From positions 21,938 to 85,937 of the forward strand of contig CAZHAK010000007.1 in assembly GCA_964530625.1 (NCBI GenBank): a stretch of DNA of 64,000 bases, in the 5' to 3' direction. This document shows, piece after piece, positions 43,235-61,854 of the stretch (its first letter is position 1; every line of letters starts with the position of its first letter). A program made the translations under genes and the position numbers. The notes under the pieces are model-generated. The model searched no databases. It saw nothing but the letters and a program-made list of their open reading frames with translations, and was not told the DNA's origin. Source of the DNA: an uncultured Alphaproteobacteria bacterium. GTDB taxonomy: Bacteria; Electryoneota; RPQS01.

Positions 43235-43263
43235 TATCTTCCTCGCTAGTTAGGAGATGCTAT

Positions 43264-45792: not shown

Positions 45793-45808
45793 TTCACCTG
45801 CTCTAAGT

Positions 45809-46633
45809 TTAGTCAACCCCGGCGTTCGAATGCAGTTCAATCCACTCGCTCCATGAACCCGGATATAGTTTCAAATCTGTGTAGCCGGCTTGATCCATTG
45901 CCCATAACAATTGGCAAGCCGTCACACCCGACCCGCAGTAGGCCGTGACGGCTTGCTGATCATGCACACCTAATCTTTCGAAAGCCTCACGCAATTCAGT
46001 CTTGCTCTTCAGTTGCGGAGGATCGCCCGTCATAAGCTCCGAAAGCGGCATGTTGCTCGCGCCTTCAATGTGCCCTGCGCGTTTGTCAAGCGGCTCGATC
46101 TCGCCTTGATAACGTTCTGAGGCACGTGCGTCAAGTACGGCTTCTCCGGCTGCGATACTTTGCGCAACAGCACGGGCATCCACCATCAACTCTTCCCGCA
46201 GTCGAATCTCAAACGGAGCCACGGAAGAAACTGCTTTCTCTGCAGTCTCGACTGCGCGTCCTTCCGCCTTCCACTTGGCAAATCCCCCATCCAGCACGGC
46301 CACGTCATCAACGCCAATCCACCGAAGCAGCCACCACAGCCGCGCGGCCAGCTTAAAGCCCTTTGCTTCCGTACAAATAACGCGCCTGCCCTGCCCAATT
46401 CCCTTGCGAGCAAGTCGCTTAACAAGCTCTTCAGGAGTCGGGAGTGGATGACGGCCCTTGGAAAAATCTCCGACTTCCGACAGATCCAAATCCACATCCA
46501 CAAACACCGCGTTTGGAATGTGGCCCTCCAAATAGCTTGCGTACGCCGCCTTTGGATCCATGTGAACCCAGCGTATATCGGCAATCACAATCCCGGGATC
46601 ATTGATGTACTCGGCCAGCCAGTCCGTCGTCAC
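45809..46633 (-). CDS. sseA: 3-mercaptopyruvate/thiosulfate sulfurtransferase (tandem rhodanese domains)
   Basis: The active-site loop is YCGSGVTACQL. There are two rhodanese domains. A GTG start at 46633 gives MTTDWLAEYINDPGIVIADIRW, a typical SseA N-terminus. The longer ORF in the track (to 46990) overlaps the upstream beta-helix gene and is rejected. Confidence 0.75.
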   Translation of the reverse strand: MTTDWLAEYINDPGIVIADIRWVHMDPKAAYASYLEGHIPNAVFVDVDLDLSEVGDFSKGRHPLPTPEELVKRLARKGIGQGRRVICTEAKGFKLAARLWWLLRWIGVDDVAVLDGGFAKWKAEGRAVETAEKAVSSVAPFEIRLREELMVDARAVAQSIAAGEAVLDARASERYQGEIEPLDKRAGHIEGASNMPLSELMTGDPPQLKSKTELREAFERLGVHDQQAVTAYCGSGVTACQLLWAMDQAGYTDLKLYPGSWSEWIELHSNAGVD

Positions 46634-46644
46634 AATCTGTGTCG

Positions 46645-49600
46645 TCAAGGCTGCGGCTCTGCCAATACTTGAAAGAATCCCTTCACCGGGTGAACCGGGC
46701 CAATAAACTGAAAAACTGTAAAGGTGTCCGTCGTTATCACGACGGTCGAGAGAAAACTCCCGCTCATGCTCGAGTCCGTCTTGACTGTAAACAGAGCCGG
46801 AACATTGTAGCTCCAATGCAGCCACACGCTGTCCGAATTCGCGCGAATCATCAAGTCCTCGATCGGCGCAAGCGGTTCGCCAAGCTGCGGACCGTGATAC
46901 CCCTGATCGGGTCTGGATATGTCTGCGATGAAATCGATGCGAGTCGTTCCTTCCGGAGCAATCAACAGCGTGTCCCCGGCATTCACACACGGAGATTGCA
47001 CGCTATCTCCCGTCGAAAGCTGCGCCAAATAGAATCCGTGACCCGATCCGCTCACCCACTGGGGATCCAATTGAATGTTGTAGTAGCGGTCACACGGATC
47101 ACTGTTCGAGTTCAAGCTGTCCAATATGCCAATACTCGCCGGCCCCTGATTAGGGGTGTCCGCAAAGAATGCGAAATTCGCGGAGTCATTCTGCGCCACG
47201 CAATTGTAGCGTACGACAGACGTCGATGTCACGAAGAAAAACATCCCGTCGCCGTGATTCTTGGCGATGATATTGTTCTTCACCTGCGGGGAGCCAAAAC
47301 GAATGTAAACTCCCGCGCCATCCACTCCACTGTTTCCTGAAATCGTGTTGAACTGGAGCGTTGCGCTCGCGCTGCCCACCCATATCGCGCCGCCCGCAGG
47401 TGCGCTGTTATTCAAAAGCAAATTATTCCTGACAAGCGTGGGTGACGTGTCCAAATGAATTCCGCCCCCTGTTGCAGAAGCGGAATTCCCTTCAATCCTG
47501 CTATTCAAAATCTGCCCGGTCGCACTCTTTGCCAAAAGTGCCCCGCCTGCCTTCGCAGATCCGCCTGCCATCACGCAATCGTCAATAATCGGATTGGAGT
47601 TCGTTGCCGCACAAACTATTCCGCCCGAGTCGGCAGAACTGCTTGAGAGAAAACATTCCGTAAATACTGGCGAAGACTGTGTCAGATAAACCGCGCCGCC
47701 CTGCAACGCTTTGTGCCGCGAGATCGAGCAATGAACGAACGACGGTGAAACACCGCTTAGCCAAATCGCTCCGCCCTGTGTCCGTGAAGTTGTCAGGGCC
47801 CACGAGTCACTCCAACCGACATAGTCAAAAGCGCTCGCTCCGGCGCTACCGCTCATGGTAATCCCACGCCAGCGACCCGGATTGCTCACGGTGTCTGTAG
47901 CAAACAAAATAGAATCTGAAACGTTTCCTATCGCAGTTACAACCCCCTTAACATCCATGCCGCATGGACCACAGAACAATAACGTGGTTCCCGCCGCAAT
48001 CGTCAAATCTTCCCCCGTATTCACGACGATATCCGCGAAGACTTTCACGGTATCGGGTCCAAGAGTACCTGATTGCGGTCCGAAAATTCCTACTGGCGAA
48101 ACTCCAAACGCACTCTCAATCGCGCCCATATCCGGCAAGCTTAAGAGTGGCAGAGGTCTATTCTCCCCGACAATGTCTTGTGCCAAGGTGTTCCAATTCC
48201 CCGAACCTATGGCAGAGCTGTTCGCACTCAAACTCCAGTCACCGTTTGCCGTATCAGCAAACATCGGATCTGAAAATACATTCAAGAATGTGTCACAGGA
48301 ATCGCCGTTCATGTTTTGAGCCACCGGAACCCCGATAAACTCAGGACCCTGCGCAGCATCGTTCTCCAAATAACCTATTGTTCCCCTTAAAAGTGAATAC
48401 GCAATCCGCGAATTCTTAGACGCACCAAAATACACATTATTGCTCGTCGACTCCGCGATGATGGAATTCTCAATATCTGCAACGGTGGATTCAAGTCGCA
48501 ACCCGCCATTAATGCTGCCGCCGATCGTGCAATGCCTGAGCGCAATCTTACTGCTATTGGCCGTCGCAAGCCCGCCTCCCAACGCCAACGATTTATTCTT
48601 CGTAATCAGGCAGTTCGTGGCCGAAAGTGTGCTCTGATTCGTCGAAATCCCGCCGCCGTTCAAAGTCGAAGTATTCTTCAATATCTCGCATGAGTTAAAC
48701 ACCGCATCCGCAGTTTCCCACAGATGCACACCGCCGCCCTCGTCACTGGCTTGGTTCCAGCGAACCCGACATCCGTTTAACGTCGGCTGTGATTGTCGAA
48801 TGGAGAGGCCGCCGCCGTTGCCCAGACTTGTGTTGCTGTCAAAATCACAATTTGTAAAGATCGGGTGCGCATTGTTTCGCAAGAACACACCACCTCCGTA
48901 AAGCCCTGCCGTGTTCTGCTTCACCACACAATTATTAAATGTCGGTGCGCCGTCTAACGTGACCCAGATTCCCGCGCCTTCGCCGACGCAGATATTGCCG
49001 CGCACTTCACACTCTTCAAACAGCCCGTTAGAGGTCGCTCGGTAGCTGTGAATCCCTCCGCCGTCATCTGCTGACGTATTCATCAAGACCTTGCACCGCA
49101 GCATATGCGGAGAGGATTCCCAAATGTAAACTCCGCCTCCGTCAAACTCAATAGTGTAGTTCCGCTCGATCAAACAATCGTAAATCAGAGGAGAAGAATT
49201 CTCACAAACAATGCCACCCCCATGACCGCGTCCCTGATTGGCTCGCATCGTCGAACTGTCAATCCGCCCTGTGGAATTTTTAAACACCAACCCTCCGCCG
49301 TTTATTCTTGCAAAATTGCTGTCAAACAAACAATGAGACAGTTGTGGTGAACCTCCGCGCAAATAAGCCCCGCCGCCGCTGCCGGAACTTGCGCTATTTT
49401 TGAAGAATCGCGAATACGTAACCACGCTGCCAATGGTATTATTTAGGAACAGCCCCGCGCCTTCGGCACGAGATACATTCCGTTCAAAGAAGCAGGAATC
49501 CATCCACAGAGTTGAGGATGTCACATACACTGCCCCACCGGCGACTTCCGCGCGATTTCTCCTGAAACTCGTGTGTTCAACTCGCAGAACGGATCCCCCA

Positions 49601-50031
49601 CCAACATAAATTGCTCCACCTAAACTATCCGGACCCGTTGGACCGGGAGCCAGCGAATTCTCAAACACCGCATAGCGCACGAAGCTCGAGTCATTGGCGT
49701 TAATTAAACTCAACCCACGCCACTTGGAAGGATTCAGAAGCGTGTCGGTCGTAAAAACTGCCGAGTCCCCTAGCGTTCCACTCACGGCAAGATAGCCATT
49801 GACAGTCAGCGAAAAAGCGCCCGCAAAATATATTCTGACCCCTGAGCCAACCAGCAGACTATCGCTTGCGGCAACACTGAGATTTCCTTGAACAACATAA
49901 GGACTTCCGGCACTCGTCCAACTTCCGCTGACAGGACCCGACACCACAAAGGTCGTATCCGCCCGCGCAGCCAGCACGCTGACCAAGAAACTCAGCGTCC
50001 AAAAAGTGAATGGTTTACCCGGGAATCTCAT
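46645..50031 (-). CDS. Large secreted right-handed parallel beta-helix repeat protein (pectin-lyase-fold), 1128 aa
   Basis: Signal peptide MRFPGKPFTFWTLSFLVSVLAARA. There are dozens of PbH1-type repeats (NxxxxGGGI/GGAI...N....). The C-terminus is FN3-like. Confidence 0.7.
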   Translation of the reverse strand: MRFPGKPFTFWTLSFLVSVLAARADTTFVVSGPVSGSWTSAGSPYVVQGNLSVAASDSLLVGSGVRIYFAGAFSLTVNGYLAVSGTLGDSAVFTTDTLLNPSKWRGLSLINANDSSFVRYAVFENSLAPGPTGPDSLGGAIYVGGGSVLRVEHTSFRRNRAEVAGGAVYVTSSTLWMDSCFFERNVSRAEGAGLFLNNTIGSVVTYSRFFKNSASSGSGGGAYLRGGSPQLSHCLFDSNFARINGGGLVFKNSTGRIDSSTMRANQGRGHGGGIVCENSSPLIYDCLIERNYTIEFDGGGVYIWESSPHMLRCKVLMNTSADDGGGIHSYRATSNGLFEECEVRGNICVGEGAGIWVTLDGAPTFNNCVVKQNTAGLYGGGVFLRNNAHPIFTNCDFDSNTSLGNGGGLSIRQSQPTLNGCRVRWNQASDEGGGVHLWETADAVFNSCEILKNTSTLNGGGISTNQSTLSATNCLITKNKSLALGGGLATANSSKIALRHCTIGGSINGGLRLESTVADIENSIIAESTSNNVYFGASKNSRIAYSLLRGTIGYLENDAAQGPEFIGVPVAQNMNGDSCDTFLNVFSDPMFADTANGDWSLSANSSAIGSGNWNTLAQDIVGENRPLPLLSLPDMGAIESAFGVSPVGIFGPQSGTLGPDTVKVFADIVVNTGEDLTIAAGTTLLFCGPCGMDVKGVVTAIGNVSDSILFATDTVSNPGRWRGITMSGSAGASAFDYVGWSDSWALTTSRTQGGAIWLSGVSPSFVHCSISRHKALQGGAVYLTQSSPVFTECFLSSSSADSGGIVCAATNSNPIIDDCVMAGGSAKAGGALLAKSATGQILNSRIEGNSASATGGGIHLDTSPTLVRNNLLLNNSAPAGGAIWVGSASATLQFNTISGNSGVDGAGVYIRFGSPQVKNNIIAKNHGDGMFFFVTSTSVVRYNCVAQNDSANFAFFADTPNQGPASIGILDSLNSNSDPCDRYYNIQLDPQWVSGSGHGFYLAQLSTGDSVQSPCVNAGDTLLIAPEGTTRIDFIADISRPDQGYHGPQLGEPLAPIEDLMIRANSDSVWLHWSYNVPALFTVKTDSSMSGSFLSTVVITTDTFTVFQFIGPVHPVKGFFQVLAEPQP

Positions 50032-50417: not shown

Positions 50418-50446
50418 TTGCATAGCAGTCTCTAACGTGCTATAAT
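50418..50446 (+). promoter_or_regulatory. Near-consensus sigma70 promoter (-35 TTGCAT, 17-nt spacer, -10 TATAAT) for the small-protein/giant-peptidase operon
   Basis: ttgcat at 50418-50423, tataat at 50441-50446, with an exact 17-nt spacer. It lies in a 486-bp AT-rich intergenic region, and an AGGAG ribosome-binding site sits 8 nt before the ATG at 50518. Confidence 0.6.
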
Positions 50447-50517
50447 CTACCGTAATACACCCAGAAGTTACTCTCTTCGGGGTGAGAATAGATGAATTTT
50501 GTGTGAAGGAGACACAC

Positions 50518-50901
50518 ATGCGATGGATGTTTATGCTTGCAATGGTTTCGATGATTGCGATTTCTGCCTTTGCGGAGGAAGAAAAATCAATCGAGGCATT
50601 GCCCACGGACGCCCAAGTTCTGGATCAACAGATGCGTGATTTGTTGATGGAAAGGGAAGCGGTACTGACCCAAATGGCCGAGGACATGAAGACCGCACCC
50701 TTAGACGAGCGTACAGCACGCGACGCTGAGTACGCGGATATGCAAACTCAATACGAGATTCAATTGCTGGAGATGATGGTCGAGTATTATGAAGTGACTG
50801 GAAATGAGCAATTGCGACTTCGTGCCGAAGCAAACCTTGCACAAATGTTGGCGCCCGCTGCAACAGGAACGCCGGAAGCCGTGAATGGGGAGGGACGCTA
50901 A
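50518..50901 (+). CDS. Small secreted acidic alpha-helical protein of unknown function (paralog of the next gene)
   Basis: ATG at 50518 follows a GAAGGAG ribosome-binding site. Signal peptide MRWMFMLAMVSMIAISAFA. The mature protein is about 108 aa and rich in Glu, Gln and Ala. The C-terminal motif is LEMMVEYYEVTGNEQLRLRAEA. Confidence 0.6.
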   Translation: MRWMFMLAMVSMIAISAFAEEEKSIEALPTDAQVLDQQMRDLLMEREAVLTQMAEDMKTAPLDERTARDAEYADMQTQYEIQLLEMMVEYYEVTGNEQLRLRAEANLAQMLAPAATGTPEAVNGEGR

Positions 50902-50902
50902 A

Positions 50903-51385
50903 ATGAAAAAGATTACTTTGATTATTCTTCTCGCCTTGCCTTTGGCTCTTTGGGCAAATCAACCTGTCCAAAAAGGTGAGCGCTACGACGACGCGGTGAT
51001 CGTAGACAAAGCTCCGACCGGAAGCTCAACCGAAGCTCGTGTTGACGACTTGGCGGGCGAACCAGTCACGACTATTCTGCAGCCCGAGTTTCAAGAGCTT
51101 GAAGACCGCTACGCGGAACAGTTGAACCAACTCCGTGCGCAAATTGAGCTGGCCGCGCCGGATCAGCAGGAAGCACTCGAACTTCAAGCCGTTGCGCTAA
51201 AGCAAGAACTTGAAGGGGCCAGACTTGAAACCGTGTTAAACTATGTTCGCGCACAGGGCAACACTGACGCAGAAAAGCGCGTGCTGGAAGCGATTCACAA
51301 CTATCAGAATCCGACCCCGGTACAGAGAGTGAGCGTTGAACGCGATCCGAAAACCGGTGCTGAGAAGAAGGGAGTTTCGCGATGA
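50903..51385 (+). CDS. Small secreted alpha-helical protein of unknown function (paralog of the previous gene)
   Basis: ATG at 50903 follows GGGAGGG. Signal peptide MKKITLIILLALPLALWA. The C-terminal motif LETVLNYVRAQGNTDAEKRVLEA matches the motif in the upstream protein. Its stop overlaps the next start (ATGA). Confidence 0.6.
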   Translation: MKKITLIILLALPLALWANQPVQKGERYDDAVIVDKAPTGSSTEARVDDLAGEPVTTILQPEFQELEDRYAEQLNQLRAQIELAAPDQQEALELQAVALKQELEGARLETVLNYVRAQGNTDAEKRVLEAIHNYQNPTPVQRVSVERDPKTGAEKKGVSR

Positions 51386-54300
51386 ATAGGCTTTTTCTCT
51401 TTCTAGCGATACTTCTTATCACCGTCAGCGCGAATGCCGCAACTGATTCGCAATCGGAGTTTGTGCGCGATGCTCAAAATGAATGGGTGCCCGAGCCCCC
51501 GACACGAGATTTCTCAAAGCGCATTGTCTTTGACAAATATGTGTGGGAAGAAGGAGTTGACCCCAAAGCACGCTTCCTCAATTTGCTCATGGTGAAGTTC
51601 TTCGATGAAGACACTGTGCGCCTGCGTGACGGCCAGTTGACTTCGTTGACGGGACGCGATATTTCTTTTACGAAATCCTTTCTTGCCCGCCATCCCGAAA
51701 TCTCGCCCCGCGTGATTATATGGAACAAAACTGAAGAAAAATACATGGCAAATCTCGCCCGCATCGAGAAGAAGTCGGGCTGGGATTTGGTTGACCTTTT
51801 CAGCTTCTATTGCTTCGAATTGCCGGAAGCACCCGCTGACGCGCAAGCGTTGATCAGCGAGATTCTCGATGCTCCCGAGGTCGAAACCGCTTATTACGAG
51901 CCGATTCCCGTGGATTTCTTGTGTCAAGATCTCGGGAACACGACACCAAACTTCCGCCCCAACCAAACATATCACGATGCTGCCCCTGTTGGTGTCGACT
52001 TAGATTGGGTGTGGGCAGAACATATTGATGATGTCGTGGACGGACCCGGCACAGGTCGTTGGACTGGAATCTTTGAGCGCGGACTCCAAACCACACACGA
52101 AGACTTCACCTTAGCTGAAGTGGCCACAGCTGGCACGCCTGATTCAGACAACGATCACGGAACGGCTGTGACAGGGTTGCTGGGCGCCTGCGATGATAAT
52201 GGGGTTGGTTGTATTGGTTTTATGGCCGATCAGAGAATGAGGCTCTATCAACGGAATTCAGGCTCTTACGGTTCCACGGCTGATATTTACAATCTAGCCA
52301 ATGGGCAACTGGTTTCTGGTGAAGTCACGAACTCATCATGGGGCTACACGGCAAATCCACTCCCTCCGGGACAAACATGTCCTTGCAATCCAGGTCAAAA
52401 CGGCTCAGTACCCATTGAGTATTCAGCAAGTGTTAAGGCAGAAGTTCAGGCGGGCGTTGCAGATGGTATTCACTACTTTCTGTCCGCAGGGAATGGATGC
52501 ACGAACCTTGATGACGCGACTTTTGGAACAACCTTCAGAAATTCCACAGACACAGGATCAAACTACGTCTCCGCAATCCAGTCTGCGGCTGGCCACAATG
52601 CATCCTGCTTTACGTGCTTTGGCGAGCGCTGTGACCTGAACGCATGGGGCGATGGGAGTTTTACGCTGGGCTATAATTCCGACGGTACTCCGTTTGTACC
52701 GGCATCCCAGGACGAGTGGTACACGAACGGATTCAATGGAACATCGAACGCCTCCCCGACCGTTGCCGGCTGTGCAGGCGTCATTCACAACGTGGTCAAC
52801 TATTATACCGGATCGACGCTGTCCACTTCGTTGATGCGAAACTATCTCAATAACTACGGTACCGCACCAGGCACGACTCCGGGGAATATCGGTGTCATGC
52901 CGAATCTCTTCGGAATCATGTCGGCTAACCTGAATCCCGATTTCCGCACTGGTTGGACCTGGTATATGGTGCCGAGAAGTACAGGAGGTGCGACAGCGGA
53001 CAACTGTCTTATCACCGCGAACTTAAGCCCCGACCCGTCACTTACCTATTGGAATGCCGCTGCGGAGAACGAAGCGGTTATCGGCTGGGGAACTCCGGCG
53101 GCGTACAGAATTTATTTAGACGACGTGTGGGAAATCGGCTGGGTGGACGGAAACGACACTTTGCATGCGCAAGAAAGAACTTACGGCATTAATGCTAGTA
53201 CTACCGTTCGCGGTGGTCGCCACTTTGTTCGCCTGACCGTTGATCCACTTGATCAAGTTGATGAATGGGTTGAAACCGACAATAGCGAACACAATCAATG
53301 GGTCTGGAACCCCCGCCAATTTACGAACGGCCAGATCCTAACCTTGTCTTCGCCTCCGATAAAGTATGCTACAGACCAGCTCTCCGAGGGTTTCTCATAT
53401 CCCAATGTGGATGGCTATGGTGGCGAAAACTTTCAATTCGATGGATACTGGGATATCATGATGGTGATGGCCCAATCTTCAACTGCAGATTACGACGCAC
53501 GTATCTACAGCGAAGATGTCACCTCGACAAACGGATTTGACGACACCGAAGCCTCCTCTGCGTACGTTTCGTTCAGCGATTTCGTAGGCGTCAACAACAA
53601 TGTCGCCGGTCAGTCTCAAGAATTGATTGCCGCTGTGCTTAATTATGACGGTGAATCTTCACAGCATCGTGTGGAGTGCGGAACTTCCACAATCCTTAGC
53701 CCCAGCACGCCCGGCATCGGCCGCACCTCCTATGGCTCGCATAGCTTAACGTCCACGGAGCTCTTTGATGTCTGGGAATTCTATGTTAACGAACTTGTTC
53801 CTTACAACATTGAAGTTGACGTCACCTCCGGAAGCGCAAACGTTGTCGTTTCTATTTACGGACCGGACGACACCTTCTTCAGCAGAGGCAACTTCAATGC
53901 GCAGTCAAACTCCGGCGGTGCGGGCGAAGACGAAATGATCTCCTGCTGGACACCCAACGCCATAGGCTGGCACGCCATCGTCGTGCACAAGCATAACTAC
54001 CTCGATTGGGATGAAACGGCTAACTTCAATCTTTACGTAGGTAAAGCAGGATTTGACTTCGTTCACACTTTAGGTACGGGTTGGTCGCACAGTTTGGTTG
54101 TAAGACAGGTTGCTGGTGGGCAGCCTGCAGTTCTGCCTGCATCTTTGACGGGCAACATTGCGACGAACTATGTCAACATCATGGCTTTGAATCAAGGCTG
54201 TACTGCCGCTGTTGCGTCTTTGGATGACCGCGTCTTTCGTGACGGACCGGCCGTTGGAACCTTTGCCAACTGGAACGGGGCAATTGTGCCGGGAGGCATG

Positions 54301-55569
54301 GCCTTCGGTTCAAATCGCAATATCGGCACTGTCCCCGGTGGCCGTCACCAAATCGGCAACGTCATTGATATTCTTAATGAAGGGCCGGAATGGGACGAAA
54401 CTAACAATCGCTACGACGAACAATTCGTTTGGACGCCTGCTCTGTTGACCAACAATGTGATGTTCAACTCGCTAAACACGGCCCCGAACTGGCGCGATTT
54501 CGATGCAACCTTGTTCTTCCCGGACTACAACGTGGACGGCTTCCGTTTTACAGGCGGTGGATTCTGGAGCGGCGTTGGCATGACTCCCAATAACACCGTT
54601 GAGGACGTATATAACTTATTCCTCTACGACCCGGCAACGTCTTCTACATCCGGGTTCGGAACTCGCTTGGTGAACTCCTGGTCAGCTGGCGCTGACGTCG
54701 AATGGGTCATTGAGAACGGTAGCCAAATCGCCAATGAAACCTTTGATGTCGGCGTTCACAACAACACCGCCTGGCCGAATGACACGTCTCTCTCCACCTA
54801 CCGTCTGCAGCAATCCAACAGAATTCAAGACCTGAATGTTGGACAATTTCACGGCGAATTCCCCTTCCCCAGCACTCAGATTATCAACGTGTTTGATCTC
54901 AATCTGACCTCTGGAGTGAGTACGGATATTCTCTTGGATAACCGTGGAACAGGTGATCTTGGATTTGCAATCTACAATCCGAGCATGCTCTATGGAAGTC
55001 GCACGACGTACACCCAATTGATTAACTTGAATGGCGACGCCGCGGATGAAGCGACAACATTTGTCCCGACTCAAACGGGCCGACATGGATTTGTGGTCTT
55101 TAAGAATGATCGCAGTGATCTGGGAGCAAATCCTTATGCGCTGGTCATCGGTGAACGTACACCAAGAGCACCGGACTCACTGGTCATCAAGTGGGCCTCA
55201 AGCTCTCCGATTTCCGTGGAATTGACGTGGGCGCCTGTGACCCAAGACATTTTCGGGCAACCAATCACGGTCGACCGTTATGACATTTACTTCACGTATA
55301 ACCTTAACGCGCTCTATCCGGCGGGTTGGGGTTTCGGTGGTTCAACCTTAGATAACACGCAAGTGCCGATTTTCCCGAATGATGCGGAGTTCGGCTTCAA
55401 GTGTCTCTTCTTGGCTGTTGACACCGATGGCTTGATCGTCGGAGGATCTGACCTGCCCGAAGGAGCCACGTCGGTCATAGGTCAAAGAGCGGAAGATGTC
55501 CGCAATGCTGCAGGATGGCACGAGAATATTCTTGTCCCACAGTCAGAACGCGTGAATTCGATTCGCTAA
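51382..55569 (+). CDS. Giant secreted kexin/subtilisin-like (S8) protein with three CARDB-like repeat modules and a C-terminal FN3-like domain; Glu sits at the predicted catalytic Asp position
   Basis: Signal peptide MNRLFLFLAILLITVSANA. His motif DNDHGTAVTGLLGA. Oxyanion YFLSAGNGCTN. Ser motif NGTSNASPTVAGCAGV. The Asp-box position reads GTGRWTGIFERG (Glu instead of Asp). Repeats occur at VDEWVETDNSEHNQWVW, LDWDETANFNLYV and GPEWDETNNRYDEQFVW. Confidence 0.65.
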   Translation: MNRLFLFLAILLITVSANAATDSQSEFVRDAQNEWVPEPPTRDFSKRIVFDKYVWEEGVDPKARFLNLLMVKFFDEDTVRLRDGQLTSLTGRDISFTKSFLARHPEISPRVIIWNKTEEKYMANLARIEKKSGWDLVDLFSFYCFELPEAPADAQALISEILDAPEVETAYYEPIPVDFLCQDLGNTTPNFRPNQTYHDAAPVGVDLDWVWAEHIDDVVDGPGTGRWTGIFERGLQTTHEDFTLAEVATAGTPDSDNDHGTAVTGLLGACDDNGVGCIGFMADQRMRLYQRNSGSYGSTADIYNLANGQLVSGEVTNSSWGYTANPLPPGQTCPCNPGQNGSVPIEYSASVKAEVQAGVADGIHYFLSAGNGCTNLDDATFGTTFRNSTDTGSNYVSAIQSAAGHNASCFTCFGERCDLNAWGDGSFTLGYNSDGTPFVPASQDEWYTNGFNGTSNASPTVAGCAGVIHNVVNYYTGSTLSTSLMRNYLNNYGTAPGTTPGNIGVMPNLFGIMSANLNPDFRTGWTWYMVPRSTGGATADNCLITANLSPDPSLTYWNAAAENEAVIGWGTPAAYRIYLDDVWEIGWVDGNDTLHAQERTYGINASTTVRGGRHFVRLTVDPLDQVDEWVETDNSEHNQWVWNPRQFTNGQILTLSSPPIKYATDQLSEGFSYPNVDGYGGENFQFDGYWDIMMVMAQSSTADYDARIYSEDVTSTNGFDDTEASSAYVSFSDFVGVNNNVAGQSQELIAAVLNYDGESSQHRVECGTSTILSPSTPGIGRTSYGSHSLTSTELFDVWEFYVNELVPYNIEVDVTSGSANVVVSIYGPDDTFFSRGNFNAQSNSGGAGEDEMISCWTPNAIGWHAIVVHKHNYLDWDETANFNLYVGKAGFDFVHTLGTGWSHSLVVRQVAGGQPAVLPASLTGNIATNYVNIMALNQGCTAAVASLDDRVFRDGPAVGTFANWNGAIVPGGMAFGSNRNIGTVPGGRHQIGNVIDILNEGPEWDETNNRYDEQFVWTPALLTNNVMFNSLNTAPNWRDFDATLFFPDYNVDGFRFTGGGFWSGVGMTPNNTVEDVYNLFLYDPATSSTSGFGTRLVNSWSAGADVEWVIENGSQIANETFDVGVHNNTAWPNDTSLSTYRLQQSNRIQDLNVGQFHGEFPFPSTQIINVFDLNLTSGVSTDILLDNRGTGDLGFAIYNPSMLYGSRTTYTQLINLNGDAADEATTFVPTQTGRHGFVVFKNDRSDLGANPYALVIGERTPRAPDSLVIKWASSSPISVELTWAPVTQDIFGQPITVDRYDIYFTYNLNALYPAGWGFGGSTLDNTQVPIFPNDAEFGFKCLFLAVDTDGLIVGGSDLPEGATSVIGQRAEDVRNAAGWHENILVPQSERVNSIR

Positions 55570-55591
55570 ACCGTCACTTAATTTGTGATCC

Positions 55592-55627
55592 AAACGAGGC
55601 CCCGCGGGGCCTCGTTTCGTTTTGATT
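55592..55627 (+). terminator. Strong rho-independent terminator after the giant peptidase gene
   Basis: aaacgaggcccc-gc-ggggcctcgttt is a perfect 12-bp stem at 55592-55617, followed by cgttttgatt. Confidence 0.8.
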
Positions 55628-55748: not shown

Positions 55749-58700
55749 ATGCTCGACCTGTTTCCGTCACGCTTCACCCTTAGATCAATGTTTCGGACTA
55801 TTTACACGCTCGCAACTCTACTCATCTGCCATTCCAGCCTCTGGGCGGCGAAAGACCTCCCGATGCATGGGTTCCTGGCCTACTGGCCTGCGGCGCTTGG
55901 ATTGATGGCTGCGGTGGGTTTGGCAGGGCTGTGTATCCTGACTTTTCGGAGGGCACGTAAGACCGACGAACACGATCCTGTGCTGGATTGGCGATCCCTT
56001 GCAGAAAACATCGCCGAAGCGGTTATTCTTCTGAAGGCCGATGGAACGGTGCTGTTTGTAAACCGCTGGAGCAGCGACCGTGATGTTATGATCGGTATGC
56101 CCATCGAAGAATTTATTCACGGCGATGATCGAGTTCGTTGGAAAGAGTACTACTTTCTTCGAGCAGGCAGAGCCTCCGTTTGTAAAACTGATGTTTTCAA
56201 AATGACGCTGCCCGAAGCCACCACCGCCTATTGGGAAGTGCGCATTTCGCCGCTCTCTAATGGGCCGCACGGAGCAGATATCATGCTCTGTGCCCGCGAT
56301 GTCACAGATTCCCGTTTGAAAGAAACAACTAAAGACGTTCTCCACAAAGTTACTTTTGCCTCGACTCACGTTGAGTCCTTGGAATCATTTGTCAGATACA
56401 TCGAACTGCAACTTGCCCGATTGGTGGATACAAGTAACTTCTACCTTGCTCTCTACGACAACGAGACTGATACGTACTTGAAATTCCTGTCCAGAGATCG
56501 TTCGGAGCCGCTTACAGCAGAAATCGAGCGGGTGAGCCTCAAGGGAGGATTGACTGACTATGTTCGCAAGACCGGCAAACCGGTGCTGATGAACAATCAC
56601 AATCGAGCGGAATTGATCGCTAATGGCAGCTTGCGAACAATTGGAGAATCCGCCGCTTGCTGGCTCGGGGTGCCCTTGCAAACACGCGATGACGTACTTG
56701 GTGTGCTCGTCGTGCAATCGTATAACAATCTGAATTGCTACACCAACTCTGATGTCGAACTCTTGTCGATCGTCGCGGGTTCGATAGGACGAGCGTTCGA
56801 GCGAAAATCTGCCCAAGCCGAGTTAAAGCAACGGGAAGAAAAACTCAGGCTCTTCACTGAGCGCACGCCCGCGCTGCTCTGGTCACAAGACGAAACAGGG
56901 AGAATTACCTACGCAACCGGTGCGGCGTTGTCAGCGATTGGACTTGGTCCCGACTCACTGGTTGGAAATACTCTTTGCCAGACCGTGCAGTTCAAAGACG
57001 AAGACTTCAGACAACAATTCGAAACGTTGGTGCCGGGCGCACCGCAAAGTTTCCAATTCATATTGCGTGAACGCACCTTTGAGGCATGGATCGAGCGGAC
57101 AAACAGTGCTGATGGAAAATTTGCGGGCATGACCGGCGTAGCGTTGGATGTGACTGAGAAGGACCGCGCGGGGACTGAACTGCGCAGGTTTTTTGAATTG
57201 TCCGGAGACTTGTTTGCCGTTATTGATTTGCAAGGCGTACTTGTACGCTGCAATGATGCGTACTTAAATGCCACAGGATATACGCGTGAGGAGAGAATCG
57301 GTCAGCCATCCCTCACCCTGGTTCATCCTGATGACTTTGCCTTAGCTGAGTGGGCTATGAAAAGACTGTCAGCAGGGGAGCCGGTTATCGGACTCGAAGC
57401 GCGGATTGTGTGCAAAGACGGAGGATGTAAATGGATATCCTGGAGCTCCGTTCTTGATCCGCATGACAACCTGATTTATACTTCAGGTAAAGATGTCACG
57501 AGTCGCCGTGAAATCGAGAATGCGCTTCACGAGCGTGAAGAACAACTTTGCCTCTTTGTCGAAAATTCTCCCGCGGCACTTGCCATGTTTGATCGTGACA
57601 TGAACTATATGATTGTTAGTGAACGATGGCGCACCGATTACAATCTTGGAAGCACTGACTTTGTCGGAAGATCGCATTACGAGGTCTTCCCGGAAATCAG
57701 CGATGAATGGAAAGTGATTCATAAACGTTGCTTAAACGGTGCCACTGAACAATGCTCACGCGATCCCTTCCTGCGGAATGACGGAACAACCGATTGGGTC
57801 CGATGGGAAATTCGCCCTTGGTATCGTGCCGACGGCACTATCGGCGGAATCATGATGTTCACTGAAGTCATCACCGACGAAGTCAATGCAGAGTTGGAAC
57901 TTTCACGTTCCAGAAATCTTGCCCGTCAAATTGTCGAGTCATCGCTCGACTCCGTTATTGCTATTGACGGCAAAGGGAATGTTACCGAGTGGAATCCACA
58001 GGCAGTGAAAGACTTTGGCTACACGCACGACGAAGCGATCGGCAAACCACTGCACGACCTGATTGTCCCCAAACATCTGGCCGAAGCCCACGTTCGAGGC
58101 CTTGAAAAGTACGCGCGTTCGGGTCACGCCCTGATCCTGAATCGTATCCTGAATTTACCCGCGATACGCAAGGGCGGGGAGGAGTTCCCTGTCGAAATTT
58201 CGATCTGTCCCATTCAAGTCGGTGACGAGACTCATTTCTCGGCATTTATCCGCGATATCAGTGAACGGCTTGAAAAGGAAAAAGAACTCACCGAAAGCCG
58301 CGCTCGGCTCAAAGAAGCCCAAAGAATCGCCGGTCTTGGATTCTGGGAATGGTTTGCCGAAAAAGATGAGATGTTTGTCAGCGAAGAGAAACTAACACTC
58401 TACGACAGACCTGATTTGAAACTGCCGATCACCTTTGCGCGGTTTCTTGAGATCGTGCACCCGGATGACCGACAAATGTTCATCGATACCAATCAGGCGC
58501 TCGCGTCAGGGCAGAATTCTTGCGAACTCCAATACAGAATCGTAAGACCGACGGGCGAAATCCGATATGCTTACAGCCAGGGTGAAACCGCACGAGACGA
58601 GCACGGTAACATCCTGAAGCTATTCGGCACCACGCTCGACGTCACAGACAGAGTTCTGAACGAACAAATGCTGCGGGACAGCGAACAGAGACTGGCAATG

Positions 58701-60587
58701 GCGCTCGAAGGTTCAACCGACGGCTTCTGGGATTGGAATATCGTTTCTGGCGATTGCTTTTTTAGCCCAAGAATCGTAGAGTGGCTCGGCTATGACGCAG
58801 GTGAGTTCATTCATAAAATGAGCTTCTGGCAAGAGATTGTTCATCCGGATTCTCTGCCTGTGGTCAATCGCGCTTTTGCTGAACACGTCGCGAGTAGAAC
58901 TGCGCACTATGAAGTCGAAGGACGAATACGCACGAAATCCGGGGAATGGATTTGGGTGTTATCGCGAGGGAAGGTCGTGCTGTGGGATGAACACGGAGCA
59001 CCACTGCGTGCAGCAGGAACATGGACAAACATCACAGACCGAAAAGTTATCGAGGCACGTGCGCTTCAGCTTGGAAGAATTCTGGACAATTCCGTCAATG
59101 AAGTCTACATCGTTGACATAGACTCTCTGAGAATTCTGGAAACCAATCAGAGGGCACGAATCAACACCGGCTACTCGCTCGAAGACTACCAGACTCTGAC
59201 CATTCCACGGCTAACGGCAAATTGGAGAGAAAGCGAACTTCCAAGGCTGCTTCATCCTCTGCTGAACTACAAAATGGAAGTTGTGCGGACAAAGGCCGAT
59301 CATCGCCGAAGTGACGGGACAACGTATCCGTTTGAAGCTACGCTCCAGCTCATGGAATGGCAAGACAAAACTGTGCTTGTCTTCATTGGCTCCGACGCAA
59401 CCGAAAAGGCCAAAGCCGAGCAAAAACTGGAAAGACTGGATGCGCGAATCAGACAAAATCAACGTCTCGAAACGATCGGCACGCTGGCTGGCGGTATCGC
59501 CCACGACTTTAACAATATCCTTACTCCAATACTGGGCTATGCGGATATCGCCGCCAGTGAACTGGATCAAGAATCGACGACGCGAAAAGATCTCGAACAT
59601 GTGATTCAGGCTGCCTACCGGGCCAAAGAGCTCGTCCAGCAAATTCTTGCGTTCAGCACGCAAGGTGACCAAGCTCGCCATCATCTGAAAATCGACCTTG
59701 TCGTAAAGGAAACTCTAAAGTTGTTGCGGGTCGGCATCCCGACAAACATTGATTTAGTCCAAAGCATCGAAAACGTCGGGTATGTTACGTCGGATCCCAG
59801 CATGATCAATCAGATCCTCGTGAATCTCTGCGCCAATGCCGGGCAGGCGATCGGTGAAACCGGCGGTGTCATTGATGTTTCACTCACAAAAGTTGAACTG
59901 AAAGAGTATGACGAACGTGAGCGCCTGAAACTGCCCGAAAGAGCCTACGCAAAACTGTGCGTGCGAGACTCCGGCAAAGGAATGGATGGATACACCATGG
60001 GACGAATGTTTGAACCATTCTTCACAACGGAAGATGTCGGCAAGGGAACTGGACTCGGACTTTCCGTTGTGCATGGCATCGTGAAATCGCACGGAGGGGC
60101 AATAGATGTTGAGTCCGTACCCGATCAAGGTACACGAATTTGCGTCTATCTACCCGTAGAATTCGATGACGACGGCGCAAATCTCCCGCGCACGTTTGAG
60201 GACCCCTCGGGAAGTGAGCACATCCTACTCTGCGATGATGACGATTCTATTCTGATGCTCGGAAAGCAGATGCTTGAGAACTATGGATACTCTGTAACCG
60301 CGACCCAAGACCCTGTCGCAGCTCTGGCCTTGCTGGCGCAAGCAGACCCCCCTGTCGCGGCTATTGTCGTGGATGATCAAATGCCCATCCTCTCAGGCCG
60401 TGATGTCGCATTAGCGGCGCACGATTACAACTCGAGGGTCCCGGTCATCCTGCTGTCTGCGGGGCAAAGCCGTACGGAGAGCGCAGAATGCTTTGCTGCC
60501 GTGCTTTCGAAGCCGGTCGGAGCAGGTGATCTTGCACATTCAGTTAGAAAATGTATTGACGAATCCAAAATGGAGACTGCAACATAA
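55749..60587 (+). CDS. Hybrid sensor histidine kinase: N-terminal TM region, multiple PAS/PAC and GAF domains, HisKA, HATPase_c, and a C-terminal receiver domain
   Basis: Two N-terminal hydrophobic segments. There are many PAS-like repeats over 1612 aa. The HisKA H-box is GGIAHDFNNILTPILGYADI. The ATPase G-boxes are GKGTGLGLSVVHGIV. The receiver region is HILLCDDDDSILML...VVDDQMP...SKPV. Confidence 0.8.
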   Translation: MLDLFPSRFTLRSMFRTIYTLATLLICHSSLWAAKDLPMHGFLAYWPAALGLMAAVGLAGLCILTFRRARKTDEHDPVLDWRSLAENIAEAVILLKADGTVLFVNRWSSDRDVMIGMPIEEFIHGDDRVRWKEYYFLRAGRASVCKTDVFKMTLPEATTAYWEVRISPLSNGPHGADIMLCARDVTDSRLKETTKDVLHKVTFASTHVESLESFVRYIELQLARLVDTSNFYLALYDNETDTYLKFLSRDRSEPLTAEIERVSLKGGLTDYVRKTGKPVLMNNHNRAELIANGSLRTIGESAACWLGVPLQTRDDVLGVLVVQSYNNLNCYTNSDVELLSIVAGSIGRAFERKSAQAELKQREEKLRLFTERTPALLWSQDETGRITYATGAALSAIGLGPDSLVGNTLCQTVQFKDEDFRQQFETLVPGAPQSFQFILRERTFEAWIERTNSADGKFAGMTGVALDVTEKDRAGTELRRFFELSGDLFAVIDLQGVLVRCNDAYLNATGYTREERIGQPSLTLVHPDDFALAEWAMKRLSAGEPVIGLEARIVCKDGGCKWISWSSVLDPHDNLIYTSGKDVTSRREIENALHEREEQLCLFVENSPAALAMFDRDMNYMIVSERWRTDYNLGSTDFVGRSHYEVFPEISDEWKVIHKRCLNGATEQCSRDPFLRNDGTTDWVRWEIRPWYRADGTIGGIMMFTEVITDEVNAELELSRSRNLARQIVESSLDSVIAIDGKGNVTEWNPQAVKDFGYTHDEAIGKPLHDLIVPKHLAEAHVRGLEKYARSGHALILNRILNLPAIRKGGEEFPVEISICPIQVGDETHFSAFIRDISERLEKEKELTESRARLKEAQRIAGLGFWEWFAEKDEMFVSEEKLTLYDRPDLKLPITFARFLEIVHPDDRQMFIDTNQALASGQNSCELQYRIVRPTGEIRYAYSQGETARDEHGNILKLFGTTLDVTDRVLNEQMLRDSEQRLAMALEGSTDGFWDWNIVSGDCFFSPRIVEWLGYDAGEFIHKMSFWQEIVHPDSLPVVNRAFAEHVASRTAHYEVEGRIRTKSGEWIWVLSRGKVVLWDEHGAPLRAAGTWTNITDRKVIEARALQLGRILDNSVNEVYIVDIDSLRILETNQRARINTGYSLEDYQTLTIPRLTANWRESELPRLLHPLLNYKMEVVRTKADHRRSDGTTYPFEATLQLMEWQDKTVLVFIGSDATEKAKAEQKLERLDARIRQNQRLETIGTLAGGIAHDFNNILTPILGYADIAASELDQESTTRKDLEHVIQAAYRAKELVQQILAFSTQGDQARHHLKIDLVVKETLKLLRVGIPTNIDLVQSIENVGYVTSDPSMINQILVNLCANAGQAIGETGGVIDVSLTKVELKEYDERERLKLPERAYAKLCVRDSGKGMDGYTMGRMFEPFFTTEDVGKGTGLGLSVVHGIVKSHGGAIDVESVPDQGTRICVYLPVEFDDDGANLPRTFEDPSGSEHILLCDDDDSILMLGKQMLENYGYSVTATQDPVAALALLAQADPPVAAIVVDDQMPILSGRDVALAAHDYNSRVPVILLSAGQSRTESAECFAAVLSKPVGAGDLAHSVRKCIDESKMETAT

Positions 60588-60964
60588 TGAATCGAATTTT
60601 GGCCATTGACGATGATCCCAACGTTAGACAAATGATCTGCCGGATGCTTGAGCGCAGCGGGTACGATGTCGTGACTGCTGCCAACGGCCGCGAAGGTGTT
60701 GAAAAATTCCGGGCTAATCCACCGGACGTCGTTATCACGGACATCATTATGCCCGAACAGGAAGGCATCGAAACTATCCGGCAACTGAAATCCGAATTCC
60801 CGGATTGCCGCATCATAGCAATCTCTGGAGGCGGACGGGTTGGCCCGGCAGACTACCTGAACATGGCAAAGCTACTCGGAGCCGCTAAAACTATCAGGAA
60901 ACCCTTCGACAGCGCACAGCTTATCTCGGCCATTCGAGAAGTCATGGCAGAGGATGTCGCCTAA
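60587..60964 (+). CDS. Single-domain CheY-like response regulator
   Basis: MNRILAIDDDPNVRQM...VVITDIIMPEQEG...RKPF. The start overlaps the kinase stop (ATGA). Confidence 0.85.
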   Translation: MNRILAIDDDPNVRQMICRMLERSGYDVVTAANGREGVEKFRANPPDVVITDIIMPEQEGIETIRQLKSEFPDCRIIAISGGGRVGPADYLNMAKLLGAAKTIRKPFDSAQLISAIREVMAEDVA

Positions 60965-61098
60965 GCTGCCTCGACCTTATCTTGCTGATTTTAGATGGAC
61001 GTGCCTCGGTGCGAAAAGAGGCATCAATCTGTCTTTTCGCTGCAGAATGCAAGGCAATTCGATCCACTTGCTTAAATTATTGTTATTTCTGACTCTAA

Positions 61099-61324
61099 AA
61101 CAAATGTGACGATTACCGAACCGGTGTGACGATGTTGACGATGATTGCCTCAGCCACGCCTTCGGTTGGCACCGAAGCAGTGACCACGGAGTACACTCTA
61201 AATCAGCAACCCGAACCCGTTTAGCCCGAACGTGAACCTGACCAAAGGTGTGTACTTCACGGTGAAGATCGGCACCGAGTTCACCGCCACGAAGAAGATG
61301 CTGCCGTTAAGCAAGTGCGTGTAA
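61099..61324 (+). pseudogene. Degraded remnant of a T9SS C-terminal sorting domain (frameshifted and internally deleted), with no cargo-protein body
   Basis: Frame 1 (61099-61221) reads ...SATPSVGTEAVTTEYTLNQ. After a +1 shift, 61202-61321 reads ISNPNPFSPNVNLTKGVYFTVKIGTEFTATKKMLPLSKCV*. NPNPFSP and GVYF...TKKM are hallmark CTD motifs, but the roughly 40-aa middle is missing. The piece starts only 135 nt after the upstream gene. Confidence 0.55.
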
Positions 61325-61412
61325 CGCACGTCTTGTGCTGATGCCAACGTAAGATATTGTCCCAAGGACATACAACGGGCCTTCTACACGGGAGGCTCGT
61401 TGCATTATGTAG

Positions 61413-61662
61413 AGGTTTGAAGCAACAACACGCAAAGCAGATGCTCCCATTCATTCTATCCGTCATAAGCCTTTGTCCAAGAGCACACCATGCGGTGTTC
61501 AAATCAATGATCTGGAAATCACAATACTAGTTAGCACCTTGCATGATCGTAGCGGGTCGTCATCTTGTTTCATTTGATGCGCCGGATCTGACCACGGGTC
61601 TGTATTTCTACACGACCAAGATTGATATCGACATTAACGACACAAAGAAAAGCTGCTTTTGA
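61413..61662 (+). pseudogene. Second degraded T9SS C-terminal sorting domain remnant (one frameshift)
   Basis: Frame 0 reads ...HKPLSKSTPCGVQINDLEITILVSTLHD. Frame 1 from 61543 reads MIVAGRHLVSFDAPDLTTGLYFYTTKIDIDINDTKKSCF*. Joined, these resemble a full-length CTD (...V.I.DL.G..V.TL.....AG.H.V.FDA.DL..GLYFY......TKK...). Confidence 0.5.
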
Positions 61663-61854
61663 CGTAAGAACTTTAACTTGTTGTTTTCCTGAGGGTTCTC
61701 AAGTTCCAAATGCCCTCTCTCGGCTCACGTCAACGATACGATTATTTCATTTTTTCTTCCCTATTCCTTGCCTCGCCAAAAAATTGAGTGTAAATTGAGG
61801 GAATACCTCTGTCCCGAGGATTTCTGTTTATATGCAAGATAAAGGTGAATTGAA

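Follow-up and report, generated by a model that had tools for sequence, protein, structure and literature searches.

Two small helical paralogs as candidate partners of a divergent subtilase-like protein with a Glu-His-Ser triad in a conserved three-gene cassette

Dedicated partners such as chaperones, latency factors and inhibitors keep destructive secreted proteases safe and correctly folded in the cell envelope and, to our knowledge, every dedicated protease partner known so far has brought a new fold, a new mechanism and biotechnological use. The locus described here, which lies in a window of 64 kb (the whole stretch of DNA that was analysed), raises the question whether two small proteins encoded directly upstream of a giant subtilase-like protein are partners of this sort and, if so, in what capacity they serve it. 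The three genes form a compact cassette that is widely conserved in uncultured lineages and makes a clean three-protein system open to testing.

The cassette is read from the forward strand and consists of gene A (g1; 50518-50901, 127 aa), gene B (g2; 50903-51385, 160 aa) and gene L (g3; 51382-55569, 1395 aa), the last of which encodes a putatively secreted multidomain S8 subtilase-like protein. The junction of A and B is a gap of 1 nt and that of B and L is an ATGA overlap, in which the start of L overlaps the stop of B; the reading frames and both junctions are exactly as given in the initial annotation, and the AGGAG named there as ribosome-binding site is a Shine-Dalgarno sequence at 50507-50511, 6 nt 5′ of the ATG of A. 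The GGAG of this element is aligned in all eight relatives compared. Upstream, sequence reading places a promoter at 50418-50446, with the -35 element TTGCAT (50418-50423), a 17-nt spacer and the -10 element TATAAT (50441-50446), the latter being part of an extended -10, TGcTATAAT (50438-50446). This promoter had been called textbook, which is too strong, since its elements are present and its -10 is extended but its -35 agrees with TTGACA at only three of six positions; for the same reason it was missed by a generic consensus scan. The composite TTG-N17-TGNTATAAT occurs once in the window and gave no match in 100 shuffles. Moreover, four relatives (L004, L007, L014 and L023) have TGnTATAAT in the corresponding position, and in three of them (L004, L014 and L023) the TTG of the -35 has also survived, although the DNA around these elements has diverged. 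Downstream of L, an intrinsic terminator spans 55592-55627, in which a stem of 11 bp and its loop of 4 nt occupy 55592-55617 and a T-rich tail, CGTTTTGATT, comes next. Its hairpin has a free energy of -20.7 kcal/mol (z = -3.1), and the stem contains seven GC pairs among 11, rather than the perfect 12-bp GC stem described earlier, whose hairpin and T-run are otherwise present. The GC content of the cassette, looked at for horizontal acquisition, is 51.5% and equals that of the window (52.2%). From the promoter and the terminator, A, B and L are predicted to be cotranscribed: the extended -10 promoter would give rise to a single mRNA and the hairpin would end transcription. As translation is coupled, the three proteins would be made in roughly stoichiometric amounts. 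The description of the locus as a self-contained, translationally coupled unit is supported.

The co-occurrence of the three genes in other genomes, a check suggested with the initial annotation, came out strongly: A-B-L recurs in about 20 loci, also in distant genomes, with L proteins 30-74% identical and with unrelated flanking genes. The hosts are uncultured lineages of FCB (Fibrobacterota-Chlorobiota-Bacteroidota) type, among them, by record label, Calditrichaeota, Zixibacteria and Delongbacteria from sludge and sediments. In all of the 13 modules examined, B and L overlap by 4 nt (ATGA or GTGA), GGAGG stands about 8 nt before this junction, and a GC hairpin lies 3′ of L; the gap between A and B ranges from -11 to +2 nt among modules. 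One contig holds three tandem A-B-L modules. In the two that are fully resolved, each L has its own A and B, whereas the first module shows a single ORF of 280 aa in place of the two small genes. Since both L genes of the resolved modules keep their own A and B, the small proteins are argued to be specific for their cognate L. Two exceptions to the 1:1:1 pattern were found, namely a lineage (L012) with a single small gene, whose large protein is nonetheless of full length (1382 aa), and a locus (L019) with two tandem large genes and no small genes between them.

Both small proteins have hydrophobic N-terminal segments that, judged by eye, are signal-like. The putative signal peptide of A covers aa 1-19 (cleavage AFA|EE, read by eye) and would leave about 108 aa of mature protein with a pI of 4.1; that of B covers aa 1-18 (cleavage LWA|NQ, read by eye) and would leave about 142 aa with a pI of 4.7. 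The mature length of 108 aa previously given for A thus holds, whereas that given for B, 145 aa, does not. Neither protein contains a Cys or a lipobox. An AlphaFold model of B, predicted with close homologs only as input, showed a confident three-helix core (aa 60-83, 86-118 and 121-135; pLDDT > 90 in the helices) flanked by termini that are conserved but modelled with low confidence. The earlier view of the small proteins as signal-bearing, acidic and helical agrees with these findings. The conserved but disordered N-terminus of B carries QPVxKGERxDD and its C-terminal tail carries RDPxTG (aa 147-152), of which RDPxxG is nearly invariant in the family alignment. A basic C-terminal residue is found in 82-85% of A/B family members. 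A ends in a Pro-rich tail.

A and B did not match significantly in pairwise BLAST (E = 3), and profile-profile comparison was needed to relate the two proteins. Homologs P0010-P0017 and locus-derived sequences make up alignment A2 for gene A, and alignments A3 and A4 represent the gene B family. The hhalign result showed that the A and B family profiles align over 101 columns (probability 97.2%, E = 4.8e-11), and the A profile also matches g2 (E = 4.8e-10). By these profiles A and B are paralogs, and the C-terminal motif that they had been noted to share reflects real homology. For both genes, pN (0.23-0.33) is far below pS (0.63-0.83) and divergence tracks that of L (Spearman 0.52-0.56), which marks both as genuine genes under selection.

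No family for A or B was found in Pfam, NCBIfam or PADLOC with the window proteins, nor in Pfam with every member of both alignments. The Pfam and PADLOC output amounted to scattered coiled-coil noise, none of it consistent or above cut-off: SurA_N_3 (PF13624) scored 16.4 bits against a cut-off of 27.2 (E = 0.0085) in only 2 of 23 B members, DUF4142 was sub-threshold in 5 of 19 alignment members, and the sole PADLOC match for B was a weak one to ZorA (E = 0.008). A PDB sequence search with both profiles returned nothing better than apolipoprotein A-I (E = 0.04), and Foldseek of the B model against the PDB gave generic helical hairpins at best (E = 0.36). Only 30 clusters match B among 1.84 billion representative proteins. 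The earlier statement that the small proteins match no characterised family is borne out in Pfam, NCBIfam, PADLOC and the PDB by sequence and, for B, by fold; as judged from these searches, A and B are a previously undescribed family of putatively exported helical sister proteins.

L is modular. Structure modelling, which extended to aa 1200, and sequence comparison delimit a predicted prodomain built of beta-alpha-beta units (aa ~64-178; 51571-51915), a catalytic S8 domain (aa ~195-515; 51964-52926), repeat unit 1 (aa 515-890; 52924-54051), repeat unit 2 (aa 891-1260; 54052-55161), which is a paralog of unit 1, and a C-terminal domain (aa 1261-1395; 55162-55566), all on the forward strand. 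The prodomain was modelled with high confidence, can be aligned to pro-subtilisin E, Pro-Tk-subtilisin and fervidolysin structures that include the propeptide, and shows strong conservation, many residues from K72 to Y172 being invariant; Pfam returned no Inhibitor_I9 match over it. It is followed by a disordered linker (aa 182-193) that is the probable autoprocessing region. The pro/mature junction falls in this non-conserved linker, where its position cannot be pinned and the S1 specificity cannot be deduced from it. The catalytic domain has the subtilisin alpha/beta fold but in sequence resembles S8 only weakly (Pfam 48.9 bits; best PDB E = 3e-8), and several family members fall below Pfam S8 detection. 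The catalytic domain is followed by the duplicated unit of about 370 aa; CARDB-like and PPC-like folds were detected in this part of the protein, and unit 1 reads from its sequence as three beta-sandwich domains (CARDB-like, middle and PPC-like). Of the previous classification of L as a kexin-like S8/CARDB protein, the S8 fold stands, in divergent form, and CARDB may denote a likeness of fold; the label kexin-like, judged by closest similarity to kexin/furin (S8B) catalytic domains together with a P-domain next to the catalytic domain, finds no support. The C-terminal domain gave no match to T9SS, PEP-CTERM or other sorting domains in Pfam and NCBIfam, and no T9SS sorting domain (Por_Secre_tail, TIGR04183/TIGR04131) was found in L or its 34 homologs. 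Three L homologs weakly match the NCBIfam dentilisin PrtP model.

The active site of L was located by profile alignment to subtilisins, in which Glu232 (52075-52077) corresponds to Asp32, His259 (52156-52158) to His64, the oxyanion residue Asn371 (52492-52494) to Asn155 and Ser455 (52744-52746) to Ser221; the codons were checked. The expected Asp-His-Ser triad was not found, as the position equivalent to Asp32 is Glu in 34 of 34 homologs. All four residues are invariant in the 34 homologs, and L looks like an active protease on this conservation. Another S8 gene in the same window retains the Asp (NLDTGVD). By alignment, then, L belongs to the S8 fold but has Glu-His-Ser as its triad. Proteins with this invariant Glu in place of Asp32 make up a natural clade of Glu-His-Ser subtilases, for which literature searches found nothing relevant and hence no precedent. 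Proteins of the P0054 type, which carry VVDVEYG...HEDL, hint that the clade extends further. Such a clade is of interest to serine-protease enzymology and, because several of its members are below Pfam S8 detection, it also matters for annotation. Neither the invariant Glu nor the N-terminal prodomain appears in the initial annotation.

Several systems in which a subtilase depends on separately encoded proteins offer a basis for comparison. The serine protease ASP of Aeromonas sobria is served by ORF2 (PDB 3wqb), its external chaperone and, for a time, its inhibitor, which works in the periplasm via a C-terminal tail with a basic last residue (PMC5638518). A and B resemble ORF2 in being small, putatively exported proteins of about 150 aa that adjoin, and seem dedicated to, one S8 protease; unlike ORF2, which is single, encoded downstream and serves a propeptide-less protease, they are two all-helical paralogs encoded upstream of a protease with a prodomain. 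The PDB includes ORF2 within 3wqb, yet neither the A nor the B profile matched a chain there, and the B model gave no fold match either. The potempins of Tannerella forsythia are proteins of 98-132 aa that are encoded immediately upstream of, and cotranscribed with, the genetically linked enzyme for which each is specific, and PotC inhibits the subtilase mirolase (PDB 8ehe; PMC9890683). Our cassette is like the KLIKK-peptidase/potempin pairs in having small ORFs, probably cotranscribed, upstream of a secreted peptidase, and in belonging to the FCB group. However, potempins, of which there is one per peptidase, are lipoproteins of the outer membrane that fold as an OB or an eight-stranded beta-barrel, whereas A and B are a paralogous pair, soluble as judged by the lack of any Cys and hence of a lipobox, and all-alpha (three long helices in B), and L, unlike the KLIKK peptidases, is without a T9SS C-terminal domain.

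The operon prcB-prcA-prtP of Treponema denticola encodes dentilisin (CTLP), whose components assemble in equimolar amounts and whose PrtP protein depends on PrcB, an accessory protein being required for stability of the protease (PMC8167434). The likeness lies in a three-gene operon in which two accessory genes precede that of an S8 protease with an extra C-terminal domain. PrcB (23 kDa) and PrcA (70 kDa), however, are unrelated lipoproteins confined to oral treponemes, whereas the small A and B are related to each other and have no lipid anchor. PrtP is listed as an S8 subtilisin-family protease (PMC8167434). Further precedents for separately encoded subtilase partners are PrtM, the extracytoplasmic maturation factor required by lactococcal PrtP (PMC8037685), and the small dedicated protein in the PopD-PopC pair of Myxococcus (PMC6434023). 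PrtM is a PrsA-type lipoprotein, in contrast to A and B, for which the sub-threshold SurA_N_3 match is the only similarity of this kind. L itself is comparable to fervidolysin (1r6v) and Tk-SP (3afg) as a multidomain subtilase with a prodomain and beta-sandwich domains, but differs from these two and from PrtP in its weak similarity to S8 and in the change of Asp32 to Glu.

Because A and B match no known chaperone or inhibitor in sequence or fold, a partner role is argued from context and analogy. On the analogies above and the gene arrangement, our tentative preference, plausible without being probable, is that A and B are dedicated helpers of L in the periplasm, acting as a pair of chaperones or latency partners. 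The region would then be one transcription unit for a three-protein extracytoplasmic protease module, whose products would all be exported via their Sec-type signal-like N-termini. L would be a pre-pro-subtilase with its own prodomain, the Glu-His-Ser triad and the Asn oxyanion residue, and its duplicated three-sandwich unit probably binds substrate or a surface. A and B would most likely pair as a helical-bundle heterodimer and then bind L through conserved flexible ends, namely, in B, the disordered N-terminal motif and the C-terminal RDPxTG hairpin and, in A, the Pro-rich tail; the confident core of B, its conserved low-confidence termini and its nearly invariant RDPxxG point to a binding protein. 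Held in this way, L may be kept latent yet folding-competent; up to its maturation or export, A and B would double as steric chaperone and temporary inhibitor, and the two may stay on as subunits of the mature complex. A stronger version, which we put forward with greater reserve, is that A and B are a new Sec-exported all-alpha heterodimeric family of obligatory steric chaperones or latency subunits for an unrecognised clade of giant Glu-His-Ser subtilases; each paralog would then clamp one 370-aa repeat unit, or the active site, via its flexible termini. If true, the protease would be controlled in another way than by propeptides, potempins, ORF2 or the dentilisin accessory proteins.

The prodomain normally gives a subtilase both folding and latency. 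It is thus not evident why L, with a predicted one of its own, should need a further chaperone or inhibitor, and the partner roles proposed in the initial annotation fare unequally: chaperone, inhibitor and adaptor roles stay plausible by analogy, whereas that of an in-trans propeptide, in which A and/or B would replace a missing prodomain as an intermolecular foldase in the manner of ORF2 for ASP, becomes the least likely and is very improbable. Besides the confident model of the prodomain at aa ~64-178, its alignment with propeptide-containing structures and its conservation from K72 to Y172, the all-helical nature of A and B is unlike I9-type propeptides. A role as permanent structural subunits (scaffold, stalk or adaptor) of a heteromeric secreted or surface protease complex is rather unlikely but has more in its favour, as coupled translation, conserved among modules, points to products made in stoichiometric amounts, the pair of paralogous small proteins is mirrored by the two paralogous repeat units of L, on which they may dock, and the gene order is identical to that of the equimolar dentilisin complex (PMC8167434), the PrtP model of which weakly matches three family members. 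Without a lipobox or Cys, though, A and B cannot be lipid anchors of the dentilisin type; neither has an NCBIfam or Pfam match, and hence none to a PrcB or PrcA model if these libraries include one; and the lineage with a single small protein still has the full-length large protein of 1382 aa.

Pure self-protection is less likely than such subunits and, in our estimation, unlikely altogether: as potempin- or AprI-like inhibitors, A and B would block prematurely active L in the periplasm and take no part in folding. Inhibitors such as SSI, eglin and the I9 type are not all-helical. Potempins too are beta-barrels (PMC9890683), so that an all-alpha fold would be unlike the inhibitors compared, although the upstream position, the probable cotranscription and the small size of A and B (108-142 aa mature) are potempin-like (PMC9890683), and the conserved C-terminal tail with its basic last residue recalls the ORF2 tail in the ASP active site (PMC5638518). 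Two paralogs for a single active site would be hard to explain, and an S1 preference that cannot be deduced from the unpinned junction also counts against it. Finally, A and B might be substrates or cargo of L, pro-proteins processed into active secreted peptides or helical effectors. LanP, NisP and CylA, S8 proteases that process linked peptide precursors, are among the fold matches of L; within dentilisin, PrcA is itself a substrate of PrtP (PMC8167434), and the conserved A and B tails could be cleavage sites. Cargo is nonetheless quite improbable, since the helical cores are the best conserved and most confidently folded parts, the acidic pI (4.1-4.7) is unlike that of membrane-active peptides, the N-termini are Sec-type signal-like rather than leader peptides, and the neighbourhood has no conserved genes for modification enzymes or transporters.

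The surroundings of the cassette were also considered. A PAS/GAF histidine kinase and a response regulator encoded downstream were dropped as members of the unit, as they adjoin the cassette in the closest relatives only. A reading as a defence system was rejected in view of the signal-like N-termini and the want of a meaningful PADLOC match, that of B to ZorA being weak. A T9SS sorting domain is present in neighbouring genes at related loci, and the neighbours of the cassette include other peptidase genes, both in the window and in its closest relatives.

The three genes of the cassette lie in close succession on the forward strand and encode the small proteins A (g1, 50518-50901, 127 aa) and B (g2, 50903-51385, 160 aa) and the large S8 subtilase-like protein L (g3, 51382-55569, 1395 aa). 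The ORF coordinates bore out the gene positions, the 1-nt A/B gap and the ATGA overlap of B with L given in the initial annotation. An AGGAG sequence lies 6 nt 5′ of the ATG of A. The promoter TTGCAT-17-TATAAT is present, with its −10 element extended by TGc, but it is not the textbook consensus that had been claimed: the −35 element agrees with TTGACA at only 3/6 positions, which explains its absence from a generic promoter scan. The pattern TTG-N17-TGNTATAAT occurred once in the 64-kb window and in 0 of 100 shuffles. TGnTATAAT was found at the equivalent site in four relatives, three of which also have the TTG of the −35 element, and mean column identity in the surrounding DNA was only 52%. 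The proposed terminator hairpin and T-rich tail were also found (−20.7 kcal/mol, z = −3.1), although the stem is 11 bp with seven GC pairs and a 4-nt loop, not a perfect 12-bp GC stem.

An identical L protein is present on contigs of many metagenomes (32 index blocks), and 34 full-length homologues were found (1338-1395 aa, 30-74% identity). Loci of distant homologues were fetched and their upstream DNA was scanned for small genes. The results showed that A and B genes precede the large gene in almost every distant locus having enough upstream DNA, with wholly unlike flanks (FGE-sulfatases and GH92, a toxin-antitoxin pair, a tricorn-like peptidase or cytochrome-like genes). The search of other genomes suggested in the initial annotation thus recovered the triad across distant loci, and the cassette itself is a conserved unit. 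The genome records are labelled Calditrichaeota, Zixiibacteriota or Delongbacteria, plus some unreliable TPA (third-party annotation) names. B and L overlap by 4 nt (ATGA or GTGA) in 13/13 modules, each having a GGAGG-like site inside B about 8 nt upstream and a GC-rich hairpin 3′ of the large gene; the spacing of A and B varies from −11 to +2 nt.

One metagenomic contig (L013:71-15377) carries three tandem small-small-large modules. A and B are separate genes in modules 2 and 3, whose products share 38% identity for A, 47% for B and 52% for L; in module 1 the A and B frames are fused and read as a single 280-aa ORF. Two exceptions were found. In the L012 (5539-5982)/P0076 lineage, a single small gene, scoring with both the A and B profiles, precedes the large gene and may reflect the arrangement that preceded the A/B duplication. 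Locus L019 (25-7939) has two large-protease genes in tandem, about 137 nt apart with no small genes between them, and departs from the one-pair-per-protease rule.

Pfam gave only a weak S8 match on L (48.9 bits, aa 250-488). A structure model covering aa 1-1200 (mean pLDDT 83.6) begins with a signal helix and a prodomain (about aa 64-178); a disordered linker (aa 182-193) leads on to the catalytic domain, which a long beta-sandwich series follows, and fold matches confirm L, at the level of the predicted structure, as a subtilase with accessory domains. The label "kexin-like" was not sustained, as the closest Foldseek matches were subtilases other than kexin and furin. Residues 515-890 and 891-1260 form an internal tandem duplication (BLASTP E = 9e-18); the C-terminal two-thirds of L (window 52924-55161) is a duplicated three-domain unit of about 370 aa, paralleling the duplication of the small proteins. 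Among the 34 homologues, Pfam detected CARDB in 14 and PPC in four; no sorting domain was found in L or these homologues with Pfam or NCBIfam.

Alignment of the L family profile with subtilisins placed Glu232 (window 52075-52077, + strand) on Asp32, the motif gIFERGlqttHED aligning to vIDsGIdssHpD; every one of the 34 family members has Glu at this position. His259, Asn371 and Ser455 align on His64, Asn155 and Ser221, and all four residues are invariant. As judged from the alignment, L has an S8 fold with a triad that departs from the canonical Asp-His-Ser, and the fact that the other catalytic residues never vary speaks for an active enzyme. One family member has VIETG where VIDTG would be expected; another S8 gene in the window keeps Asp in the usual NLDTGVD motif. 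Glu likewise occupies the catalytic Asp position in P0054, a differently built S8 protein (VVDVEYGWRWSHEDL), and the Glu variant may point to a larger S8 clade that has gone unrecognised. Literature searches for a subtilase with a Glu-His-Ser triad found no precedent.

As read by eye, A and B have hydrophobic N-termini with AxA-like end sites. Cleavage there would leave a mature A of about 108 aa (pI 4.1), as claimed, and a mature B of about 142 aa (pI 4.7) instead of 145. Both are devoid of Cys, and therefore neither is a lipoprotein. Their pN of 0.23-0.33 against pS of 0.63-0.83 indicates that both are genuine genes kept by purifying selection. A and B showed no significant similarity in pairwise BLAST; comparison of their family profiles aligned 101 columns (probability 97.2%, E = 4.8e-11) and an A profile search of the window recovered g2 (E = 4.8e-10), indicating that the two are paralogous, as had been proposed. 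Their placement outside characterised families also stood, since none was found in Pfam, NCBIfam, PADLOC or PDB sequence and fold searches. Only 30 among 1.84 billion representative proteins matched in a profile search, 28 of them 88-175 aa long. One, P0086, is a B sequence whose frame continues into the beginning of an L homologue, which confirms the linkage of B and L; another, P0075 (853 aa), was rejected as an unrelated repeat protein.

In its AlphaFold model, B forms three long helices (60-83, 86-118 and 121-135; pLDDT > 90). The N-terminal segment of mature B (residues 19-42, window 50957-51028), with the motif QPVxKGERxDD, is conserved yet disordered in the model, and looks like a segment that would fold upon partner binding. 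The C-terminal tail, of lower model confidence, carries a nearly invariant R-D-P-x-(T/A/S)-G, which we take to be a chignolin-like beta-hairpin turn. The C-terminal residue (window 50899-50901 and 51380-51382) is Lys or Arg in 82-85% of A and B family members in the family alignments. This frequency exceeds what the start/stop overlap accounts for: the overlap constrains only position 3 of the final codon, and the terminal Arg of A in the window is CGC at a non-overlapping junction.

The cassette is a conserved, tightly coupled unit whose large product is a pro-subtilase and whose small products are helical paralogues with signal-like N-termini and conserved flexible ends. We infer a dedicated partnership of A and B with L, because they are never apart from L, are co-duplicated with it and diverge in step with it (Spearman 0.52-0.56). 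Among known systems, ORF2 acts in folding and transient inhibition of ASP through its C-terminal tail (PMC5638518), PrtP is matured by PrtM (PMC8037685) and PopC is held by PopD (PMC6434023). By analogy, our tentative preference is that A and B, probably as a heterodimer, would act on L as a periplasmic chaperone or latency pair. PrcB, PrcA and PrtP form an equimolar complex, and PrtP protein requires PrcB (PMC8167434); that A and B are permanent subunits or adaptors of L is a less likely alternative.

Potempins are encoded just upstream of the linked peptidase that they inhibit, one target being a subtilase (PMC9890683). A and B differ from these lipoproteins of beta-barrel fold, and a purely inhibitory role appears distinctly unlikely. 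That they are substrates or cargo of L is improbable, and an in-trans propeptide function for either is highly so, since L has its own conserved prodomain in the predicted structure. In the family, sequence and fold searches A and B fell outside ORF2, PrcB/PrcA and the SurA/PrsA-type domains; linking a protease genetically to small partners is a known logic, but the component parts here are not known ones. The cassette offers a clean three-protein system, with a putative role for A and B, and a natural catalytic variant.

The genes around the cassette are protease-rich. The − strand at 40487-50031 encodes an S8+CarboxypepD_reg protein (915 aa), an M14+CarboxypepD_reg protein, a rhodanese and a parallel beta-helix protein (1128 aa); the + strand at 55749-64000 encodes a PAS/GAF hybrid histidine kinase and a response regulator, with a further S8+CarboxypepD_reg gene starting near 61855. 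In close relatives (MAGs labelled Calditrichaeota, e.g. GCA_020637445.1 and GCA_013360195.1), a beta-helix protein gene likewise lies divergently upstream and a PAS/GAF hybrid kinase and response regulator downstream; the protease-rich context is common to the closest relatives only.
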